Source: Blastocatellia bacterium
GTDB taxonomy: Bacteria; Acidobacteriota; Blastocatellia; UBA7656; JADIYM01
Assembly (NCBI GenBank): GCA_016705245.1
Contig: JADIYM010000009.1
Location: 31,433-95,432 of the forward strand
Direction: 5' to 3'
Length of the DNA: 64,000 bases
Below the pieces are notes generated by a model that saw only the letters and a program-made list of their open reading frames with translations, made no database searches and had not been told where the DNA came from. Position numbers and translations under genes: made by a program. Shown here in pieces: positions 12,011 through 12,135 of this stretch. Each line of letters begins with the position of its first letter. Within the stretch, counting starts at the first letter, position 1.

Positions 12011-12135
12011 GAGAGTGGACAGGATTACAGGATTTTCAGGATTGACAGGATTTGCTTTGGGTTGATCGGACGGTGCTCTACATACCCAAAGCAAATCCTG
12101 TCAATCCTGAAAATCCTGTAATCCTGTCCACTCTC
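12011..12135. repeat. R1 CAGGATT-iteron palindromic element
   Basis: GAGAGTGGACAGGATTACAGGATTTTCAGGATTGACAGGATT ... AATCCTGTCAATCCTGAAAATCCTGTAATCCTGTCCACTCTC. It ends 3 nt before the M28 peptidase stop. Confidence 0.9.

Follow-up and report, generated by a model that had tools for sequence, protein, structure and literature searches.

Results

R1, a palindromic CAGGATT repeat directly after stop codons

The DNA examined here, a window of 64,000 nucleotides from a Blastocatellia bacterium (GenBank assembly GCA_016705245.1, contig JADIYM010000009.1, positions 31,433 to 95,432), has a G+C content of 65.1%, and homologues of its M49 and M28 proteins assign it to the Pyrinomonadaceae within the Acidobacteriota. 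It carries seven full copies of a palindromic repeat, R1, a density of seven per 64 kb, every one of them 3′ of a gene (Table 1). The heptamer CAGGATT on which R1 is built occurs 53 times on the two strands of the window, compared with 3.84 ± 2.14 occurrences in dinucleotide-preserving shuffles (maximum 9); 47 of the 53 fall in nine R1 loci, and the other six are scattered singles at chance level. Likewise, the arm sequence GAGAGTKGACAGGATT is matched 13 times with up to two mismatches, against an expectation of 0.02. An earlier note on this DNA, made from the sequence alone, had described seven full copies, two half copies and the heptamer architecture, all of which are present where it put them, apart from the end of the last copy, which lies at 61516 rather than 61515.

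Full R1 copies are inverted repeats whose paired arms are separated by centres of 8–46 nt (n = 7). Each arm consists of a short purine-rich lead-in, GAGAGTKGA, and three to four CAGGATT units with one or two variable bases between them. Start-to-start distances of 8 or 9 nt agree with the spacing first reported and leave spacers of 1–2 nt; such a period does not correspond to a helical turn, as had been suggested. The arm start GAGAGT(T/G), thought to be common to every copy, is absent from the 15066 copy, which lacks the GAGAGTKGA terminus and belongs to a generic TTAGACAGGATT type found in other phyla. R1 ranges in length from 63 to 152 bp, with stems of 25–54 bp. The copies of approximately 125 nt have a recognisable, related centre of about 40 nt (CTTTGGGT..GAGCACCGTCC..ACCCAAAG), so the centre is not simply unconserved, contrary to the initial description; the short copies look like internal deletions. 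RNA folding yields −41 to −100 kcal/mol on either strand. The copy at 12011 extends as an inverted repeat over 12009–12137, its 54-nt arms (12009–12062 and 12084–12137) are 100% complementary, and its minimum free energy (MFE) as RNA is about −99 kcal/mol on either strand.

The right arm of all seven full copies abuts or overlaps the stop codon of a minus-strand gene, and both coordinates and Pfam assignments agree with the genes originally named (aceA, M49-like, M28, VOC, fabL-like, GT39 and TPR). The isocitrate lyase of the window has no exact match on record. The distance from R1 to the stop codon in the window is −3 to +6 nt, compared with 6–33 nt for other hairpin families (Mann–Whitney p = 0.0006). 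TAG is the stop codon beside R1 in 6/7 cases versus 9/31 (p = 0.0096), and GTAG reads at five of the six TAG junctions; little weight is placed on this excess, because TAG accounts for only 19/47 of the stops outside the element in the wider census described below. The half copy at 51344 encodes the last 12 codons (ELTGLQDSVTD*) of a methyltransferase, an arrangement also present in locus L257.

On the other side of the element, sigma-70-like promoters follow the distal arms of two copies, and R1 thus fills the space that separates a stop codon from the transcription unit after it. At the 4632 copy the M49 peptidase stop lies on one side and the malate synthase promoter, conserved in L215, on the other. 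Promoter-side flanks are conserved in relatives, while R1 itself diverges. As noted earlier, no U-tract follows any window copy; the tails are CTCTCCTTCAC-like. Terminator-like sites of a hairpin plus T residues numbered 7 in 16 kb of the window, compared with 9.3 expected from shuffled sequence, and no R1 copy was among them.

Table 1 R1 copies, promoters, other hairpin families and further features of the 64-kb window. Positions are those of the window; empty cells indicate that nothing is given.
Feature	Position	Strand	Description	Adjacent stop codon and gene
R1 terminal fragment, solo	236–245	+	GAGAGTTGAC; just outside the 251 copy	
R1, long copy	251–375		centre related to that of the 12011 copy	TAG 375–377, minus strand; isocitrate lyase (Pfam ICL); last base of the copy is the first base of the stop
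Sigma-70-like promoter	4595–4623	−	TTGACG-17-TAAGAT; 9 nt past the distal arm of the 4632 copy	
R1, short copy	4632–4708		3+3 heptamers, 10-nt centre	TAG 4709–4711; Peptidase_M49 gene
Hairpin plus U-tract	11758–11792		classical terminator	
Leader ORF	11818–11949	−	43 codons, MTTTRHNATSWPAGISRPSGVRVSAFLFSYGFTYPRGAGRTVV*; Phe/Tyr-rich stretch	
Sigma-70-like promoter	11961–11989	−	TTGACC-17-CATACT; 22 nt past the distal arm of the 12011 copy	
R1, long copy (focal)	12011–12135		arm GAGAGTGGA plus four CAGGATT; 41-nt centre	TGA 12139–12141, 3 nt from the arm; Peptidase_M28 gene
R1, short copy, generic type	15066–15131		TTAGACAGGATT...AATCCTGTCTAA; no GAGAGTKGA terminus	TAG 15128–15130, inside the right end of the copy; Glyoxalase/VOC gene
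R1, long copy	26809–26933			TAG 26935–26937, 1 nt from the copy; adh_short_C2 (SDR), enoyl-ACP-reductase-like
R1 fragment	50531–50547	+	TTGACAGGATTTCGAGG; M28/PD40 gene stop (50460) on one side, tRNA-Asn (50592–50664) on the other	
R1, half copy	51344–51380	+	one arm; inside methyltransferase gene 50707–51381	
R1 copy	57761–57872		same locus present in metagenome contig L228	TAG 57879–57881, 6 nt away, GAGAGG between; PMT_2 glycosyltransferase
R1 copy	61413–61516		right arm decayed	TAG 61516–61518; TPR protein; last base of the copy is the first base of the stop
Second family, TTTGCGCC octamers	6522–6595, 8357–8469, 8801–8868, 36100–36191, 53307–53366			11–33 nt after stops
Third family, CTCNGTGN / CTCTGCG units	23077–23163, 39089–39183, 42043–42131, 56643–56730, 59508–59596		conserved core GTGCGAAGC-loop-GCTTCGCAC	just after stop codons
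Related to third family	43114–43175, 47351–47449			
Fourth repeat, GAGCCGCGAGCGGTAGCGAGCGTCCCACGGACGGT	19427–19630, 27841–27987, 28167–28257, 29501–29606, 51416–51713		inverted pairs and clusters	
GCGGATY-heptamer hairpin	39210–39300			
tRNA-Ala(CGC), ARAGORN call	56950–57029	−	overlaps high-GC3 ORF 56739–57068	

Stop codons at R1 arms in metagenome contigs

A scan of metagenome sequence for the lineage-specific terminus together with a second heptamer retrieved 90 contigs, and the family thus exists outside the window. Because these 90 contigs are independent and several metagenome-assembled genomes (MAGs) carry the family as well, R1 is not an assembly artefact, a possibility that the earlier note had raised. 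Contigs of relatives often break inside an R1 copy, as expected of a high-copy repeat.

For the census of stop codons, arms were oriented to read GAGAGTKGACAGGATT and scored for an open reading frame (ORF) of 70 codons or more that enters the arm and has its stop −15 to +12 nt from the first G. Such an ORF end was present at 63 of 112 evaluable unique arms (56%), as compared to 11% of 5,600 positions drawn at random from these contigs, so that adjacency to stop codons extends well outside the window. Usually only one of the two arms of an element faces a gene; of 28 paired elements, 24 had at least one side flush with an ORF end and six had both, placing the latter exactly between convergent genes (e.g., L260). 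The adjacent stop may be TGA, TAG or TAA, and its offset varies. Position +6 was the commonest, a TGA inside GAGAGTTGA (16 arms), and such an internal stop gives the protein a tail encoded by the repeat, e.g., KKES* or EEES*. Next came position −2, where the stop TA|G shares the first G with the arm (10 arms), and position −1 (T|GA; 6 arms); the remaining stops lay 3–15 nt upstream of the arm with a purine-rich tract between.

Persistence, mirrored changes and turnover at orthologous sites

Downstream of the M28 peptidase gene, R1 directly follows the stop codon in relatives whose M28 proteins are 99%, 92% and 82% identical to that of the window, and the stop itself varies (TGA in the window and TAA, TAG and TAG in the respective relatives). 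At this site the element changes much faster than its flanks, and its two arms tend to change together. The spacers A/TT/GA of the window copy correspond to AA/TTT/AA in both arms of the 99% relative, and the first unit reads CAGGAAT in both arms of the 82% relative. RNAalifold predicted 49 pairs for the four sequences of this site, 11 of them with changes on both sides. Across the census, spacers were identical between the arms of one element in 47% of comparisons, versus 21.5% ± 5% when arms were shuffled among elements.

Other sites exhibited replacement. At the M49 site, R1 is present in the window and also, with differing centres, in two relatives at about 82–85% identity; a 90% relative has a hairpin of four GCGGATY units instead, and the site is empty in relatives at 72–75% identity. 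M49 proteins beside R1 are 3–6 residues shorter than other M49 proteins. Four hairpin families occupy the PEPCK site in four lineages, one each, and the site orthologous to the short 15066 copy holds a long R1 in L313. Taken together, these comparisons indicate that a slot tends to stay filled by some stable hairpin and by no particular sequence.

Sequence conservation within arms was uneven. Mismatches in the third heptamer amounted to approximately 4.5% per position, whereas spacers were near random, the commonest accounting for only 33%. Better conservation of heptamers than of spacers fits sequence-specific recognition and does not prove it. In old orthologous copies the heptamers decay and pairing is kept, a pattern suggesting that heptamers may be recognised during spread and the hairpin matter afterwards. 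Searches of the window and of 16 loci from other phyla with Rfam 15 models detected only tRNA; with the E-value limit relaxed, the only matches were to generic long-hairpin microRNA models, all under their gathering scores. A sigma-70 promoter starting from the TTGACA of the R1 terminus was rejected, since the hexamer found 17 bp further on is AGGATT, which has a G at the critical second position, and such promoters would also point inward. Resemblances to DnaA boxes and to the 790 loop of 16S rRNA (AACAGGAUUAGA) emerged from our own comparison, have no supporting evidence and were taken as coincidence. CAGGAUU also resembles CAGGAUG of CsrB; a CsrA-type GGA site is presumably not the explanation, as its sites would sit within a stem, GGA is missing from sister families, and the taxa include groups not known to have CsrA.

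Dispersal of R1

Copies at separate loci have termini, spacer pattern and centre in common. Since unrelated loci share a nonrepetitive terminus, A/TT/NA spacers and the centre of about 40 nt, R1 has spread by the copying of whole units. None of 46 elements (39 from other phyla and seven from the window) had a target-site duplication where its maximal inverted repeat ends, and the flanks at orthologous sites had none either. The proposal of an element like a miniature inverted-repeat transposable element (MITE) therefore stands with respect to a dispersed, once-mobile origin, for which the common parts and the contig breaks inside copies speak, and gains no support from a target-site duplication or from a transposase in the window or beside the arrays. 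Arm pairs 0.7–2.3 kb apart, which might have enclosed an autonomous element, contained ordinary genes (a HipBA-like pair, a zinc-ribbon membrane protein and a secreted protein) in a sample covering a small part of any genome. The genes beside 117 arrays displayed no enrichment of a gene family, comprising 195 unrelated Pfam families with at most two members each.

CAGGATT arrays in other phyla, plasmids and phages

When one genome per species was scanned for three CAGGATT units with 1–2 nt between them, at least 118 stretches were found, with about one expected by chance by estimate; a few are coding triplet repeats (e.g., L012). The arrays take the form TTTT-N-GA-(CAGGATT-WA)3, and R1 is a local branch of this cross-phylum family. 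Several features lie outside the search pattern: among 78 arms, the GA before the first unit is conserved (G in 59, A in 69), and most have a T-rich tract 3–8 nt upstream and WA spacers. Hosts belong to at least 15 phyla, have G+C contents of 0.38–0.74, and include Chloroflexota, Verrucomicrobiota, Kiritimatiellia, Lentisphaerae, Acidobacteriota, Gemmatimonadota, Bacteroidota, Desulfobacterota, Gammaproteobacteria, Cyanobacteria, Planctomycetota and others. Among palindromic copies of other phyla, 22 are flanked by tandem genes, six by convergent and three by divergent genes; a T-tract precedes the hairpin and an A-tract follows it. Arrays occur in either orientation relative to genes. True CAGGATT arrays are found on plasmids of Thiodictyon, Spirosoma and Rhizobium, and 14 plasmid records contained a CAGGATT array, compared with none for two shuffled-heptamer control arrays. 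A literature search by sequence found no description of CAGGATT arrays; one match was a 16S rRNA sequence. The cross-phylum array is the most novel part of these results and is still without explanation.

Viral sequences contributed further cases. Among IMG/VR contigs, the phage-like L131/L158, L141 and L126 have true CAGGATT hairpins that come after a stop codon and before the next ribosome-binding site, and L130/L133/L140, L138/L147 and L199/L210 have single arms a few nucleotides upstream of an opposite-strand start codon; the majority of viral contig matches are coding G-X-Y-type triplet repeats without arrays. In two Deltaproteobacteria MAGs, whole CAGGATT hairpins are arranged head to tail at contig ends as arrays of arrays (L010 1–620, approximately five repeats with a 112-nt period; L052 1–750, approximately four repeats with a 186-nt period). 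In the Kiritimatiellia MAG L072 (2133–2306), a single CAGGATT arm lies inside the loop of a hairpin of CGCAGAGG units, a sign that arrays of one family may join with, or insert into, those of another.

Other hairpin-repeat families and further features of the window

Hairpins with arms of other 6–9-mers are present in the window and in many of the loci retrieved, often with T- or A-tract flanks. Their units include TTTGCGCC, CTCNGTG, CACGGAW, CGCAGAK, CGCAAAT, GCGGATY and TCATCGG. CTCTGCG-unit hairpins, the third family of Table 1, also occur in L065 (an Acidobacteriota MAG) and L072. The 51416–51713 cluster of the fourth repeat comes immediately after the R1 half copy, whose other arm it may have displaced. 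GCGGATY hairpins recur in L215 (11731–11824), L293 (about 6757) and L256 (about 1104), and their termini, GAAGAGCAC, resemble the GAAGAGCTGGA termini of an R1 subfamily in L313. A TCATCG-unit hairpin lies between convergent EamA and class-I tRNA-synthetase genes at the same site in three distant Pyrinomonadaceae (L219 14118–14172, L220 14113–14181 and L221 14100–14156), 9–13 nt from both stops in L219. CACGGAT arrays were found at two loci and had no plasmid matches, so an equal spread of any iterated unit is not supported.

The leader ORF of Table 1 and the classical terminator that follows it, together with the promoter at 11961–11989, precede genes for DAHP synthase–chorismate mutase, prephenate dehydratase and prephenate dehydrogenase. 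The leader is kept in relatives (a 43-residue gene is called in L313 and L314) and matches no Rfam family. Judged by its sequence, this arrangement looks like a leader-peptide attenuator for aromatic amino acid synthesis. The ARAGORN call of tRNA-Ala(CGC), which scored below the gathering score of the Rfam tRNA model, is probably a false positive because of its overlap with a high-GC3 ORF.

Discussion

R1 is described here as a nonautonomous palindromic repeat of a Pyrinomonadaceae genome that is similar to repetitive extragenic palindrome (REP) and REPIN elements and is built on CAGGATT heptamers. Dispersed as whole units, it occupies a slot directly 3′ of a gene, with the stop codon falling within the initial base pairs of the stem or formed by the TGA inside GAGAGTTGA, and with the next promoter or the stop of a convergent gene beyond its other arm. 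Copies have been inherited vertically over long periods with arms kept complementary by mirrored changes, and other hairpin families are able to take over the slot. The interpretation favored here, held with a confidence near the midpoint between belief and disbelief, is that this dispersed palindrome provides the upstream mRNA with its 3′-end hairpin, the foot of which overlaps the stop codon. R1 would be transcribed with the upstream gene and fold into a very stable stem-loop, and this 3′-terminal structure would block 3′ exonucleases, read-through into the next unit, or both. By analogy with E. coli REPs within 15 nt of a stop codon, the terminating ribosome would open the base of the stem. 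Heptamers are probably kept through recognition by a putative trans-acting mobilising or binding factor; their retention would then reflect selection on propagation of the element, and only the hairpin would matter in situ. Of the two readings offered in the earlier note, a target-preferring MITE or a selected 3′-end structure, the latter is the better backed, by retention at orthologous sites, mirrored arms, the slot between stop and promoter and replacement by unrelated hairpins; the former keeps its dispersed origin and loses its target-site duplication.

The REPIN concept reportedly goes back to Bertels and Rainey in 2011, and E. coli REPs within 15 nt of a stop codon are said to affect translation, an observation attributed to Liang, Rudd and Deutscher in 2015. 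REPs carrying a GTAG tag are found between unidirectional or convergent ORFs and frequently supply a TAG stop from their termini; in E. coli, REP/BIME elements bind gyrase and IHF, and Acidobacteria encode Y1 transposases associated with terminal inverted repeats (TIRs) that form repeat families (PMC3733652). Similar to these, R1 is a high-copy extragenic palindrome, found mainly between unidirectional or convergent ORFs and near or overlapping coding regions, its halves co-evolve so as to keep the hairpin, and the roles proposed for REPs include the mRNA stabilisation or termination proposed here. In contrast, R1 itself is tagged by neither GTAG nor CGTC: TAG is present only where a gene supplies one, and arms facing no gene have unrelated flanks, e.g., ttctgcgGAGAG and cacaagGAGAG. 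REP arms also form a simple palindrome of 20–40 bp, unlike the rows of heptamers with variable spacers in R1.

A second resemblance is to the GGGAATC and GGGGAYT (STRR-like) arrays of Xanthomonas and Nostoc, about 90% of which are intergenic (Rehm et al. 2015, PMC4692102). GGGAATC arrays lie on average 28 nt from the upstream ORF, much nearer than to the downstream ORF, often form convergent pairs capable of a stem-loop, and are conserved in location, with length and sequence varying between species (PMC4692102). R1 likewise consists of heptamers with a GGA(A/T)T core, is intergenic, lies near the upstream ORF and is convergently paired. The known arrays are contiguous, head to tail with a period of 7 and up to 14 units, and a G-quadruplex has been proposed for them (PMC4692102); R1, in contrast, has 3–4 units per arm, a period of 8–9 and only GG runs. 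Owing to its unique conserved termini and centre, R1 is a discrete dispersed element, which the heptameric arrays are not.

Correia elements of Neisseria have terminal inverted repeats and are cotranscribed with neighboring genes, their processed hairpins change mRNA stability, and like other MITEs they generate a target-site duplication (TA for Correia). R1 shares with MITEs a short noncoding sequence, terminal inverted repeats and many dispersed copies, and differs from them in the absence of a target-site duplication; no parent insertion sequence (IS) with the same ends was found in the small part of any genome sampled. The ends of IS607-family elements hold several short direct motifs bound by multiple transposase dimers, with protected blocks of about 10 bp, and the family, which spans bacteria and archaea, makes no target-site duplication (Chen et al. 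2018, PMC6188088). The iterated motifs and the lack of target duplication in R1 would fit such ends, a mechanistic analogy only; R1 arms are inverted repeats of each other, which IS607 ends are not, and IS607 carries tnpA (and tnpB), whereas no tnpA was found beside the arrays. Like an intrinsic terminator, R1 is a GC-containing hairpin just 3′ of a stop codon, sometimes common to convergent genes. It departs from one in having no U-tract and far longer stems and, in other phyla, in the reversed order of its tracts. For want of a U-tract, R1 is not a terminator of canonical form, even though the organism does possess a hairpin-plus-U-tract attenuator.

Several observations weigh against a 3′-end hairpin of the mRNA. 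Transcription of R1 and its role at the 3′ end are deduced from DNA sequence, and in view of the missing U-tract canonical intrinsic termination is unlikely. Selection at the RNA level is not demonstrated, as stem mismatches in the mRNA sense displayed no significant excess of G.U over A.C (27:18, p = 0.23) and no consistent MFE asymmetry existed between the strands of R1 copies; DNA conversion from arm to arm could explain the mirrored changes equally well, and many copies contain uncompensated mismatches. In other phyla, approximately half of the arrays are single arms unable to form a hairpin (the other half are convergent pairs), and arrays are less flush with stops, at a median distance of about 35 nt. 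A mobilising gene was likewise not found: the window genes and the genes flanking 117 arrays include no transposase, Y1_Tnp or RAYT.

The principal competing explanation is that R1 is a purely selfish miniature mobile element whose flush position reflects tolerance together with an insertion preference for stop-proximal purine tracts or existing terminator hairpins. Its enzyme might be an IS607-type serine transposase or a Y1 transposase (RAYT/TIRYT) that binds the heptamers without producing a target duplication, for which the multiple direct motifs at IS607 ends (PMC6188088) and the acidobacterial Y1 transposases (PMC3733652) offer precedents. The parts common to copies at different loci, conservation of heptamers over spacers, decay with uncompensated mismatches and no G.U bias, missing target-site duplications, contig breaks inside copies, and M49 proteins shortened as if the gene end had been cut are all consistent with it. 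It accounts poorly for hairpin complementarity kept at one site down to 82% protein identity and for slots refilled by other hairpin families rather than left empty, and no transposase was found in the window or beside the 117 arrays, nor arrays around a transposase-like ORF; it is regarded as possible, if doubtful. Another suggestion is that arrays arise in place, by tandem-repeat slippage and palindrome growth at existing hairpins, like the heptameric repeats of Xanthomonas and Nostoc, and are not copies of one mobile element. Variation of unit content at one slot between relatives with 99% identical M28 proteins, variable unit number and spacer length, the many other iterated-unit hairpins, and the paired Xanthomonas arrays of fixed location and variable length (PMC4692102) fit this suggestion; it is nevertheless given very little credence, as the GAGAGTKGA terminus, the A/TT/NA spacers and the centre recur at unrelated loci, and the T-rich lead-in and GA recur across phyla.

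Alternatively, R1 could be a DNA-level protein-binding array, with a nucleoid-associated protein, gyrase-like enzyme or regulator coating gene ends and the hairpin secondary. The exact heptamer and TTTT-N-GA lead-in in at least 15 phyla, including arms incapable of a hairpin, the often noncomplementary spacers, the free orientation to genes, the plasmid matches lacking for shuffled heptamers, and the binding of gyrase and IHF by E. coli REP/BIME elements (PMC3733652) are compatible with such an array. At orthologous slots, however, CAGGATT decays or yields to GCGGATY or other units while the hairpin is kept, the 8–9 bp period puts the sites off one face of B-DNA, and neither a candidate protein nor an enriched neighbor gene family was found, rendering this explanation improbable. 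Comparably small is the chance that R1 is a Rho-independent, possibly bidirectional terminator working without a U-tract. Its position between a stop and the next promoter or between convergent stops, its very stable stems and the number of hairpin-plus-T sites, no higher than in shuffled sequence, would accord with one; no copy has a U-tract, the flanks in other phyla have the reverse polarity, and the same organism has a terminator of classical form at 11758–11792.

Beyond R1, TTTT-N-GA-(CAGGATT-WA)x3, single or as a convergent pair, is put forward tentatively as an undescribed pan-bacterial cis-element read by a widespread factor, either a transposase-like mobiliser or a host DNA- or RNA-binding protein. 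GCGGATY, CACGGAT, CGCAGAK, TTTGCGCC and other sister families would join it in one broad class of interchangeable iterated-unit hairpins marking gene 3′ ends, physically coupled in Pyrinomonadaceae to the stop codon and so to translation termination; this broader proposal is more speculative than established and rather unlikely to hold. The same heptamer row and lead-in in at least 15 phyla, plasmids and phage contigs points to a recognition system that nobody has named.

The series of orthologous sites constitutes a natural experiment on hairpin maintenance and turnover, in which one slot displays a perfect palindrome, a decayed copy with mirrored changes, and another family in its place. If the 3′-end reading of R1 is true, interchangeable repeat hairpins starting inside the stop codon would define where genes end in a soil phylum that is abundant and little studied. 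This would bear on 3′-end formation where canonical terminators are scarce, as well as on gene calling in MAGs, where repeat-derived C-terminal tails such as KKES* arise, and on assembly breaks.

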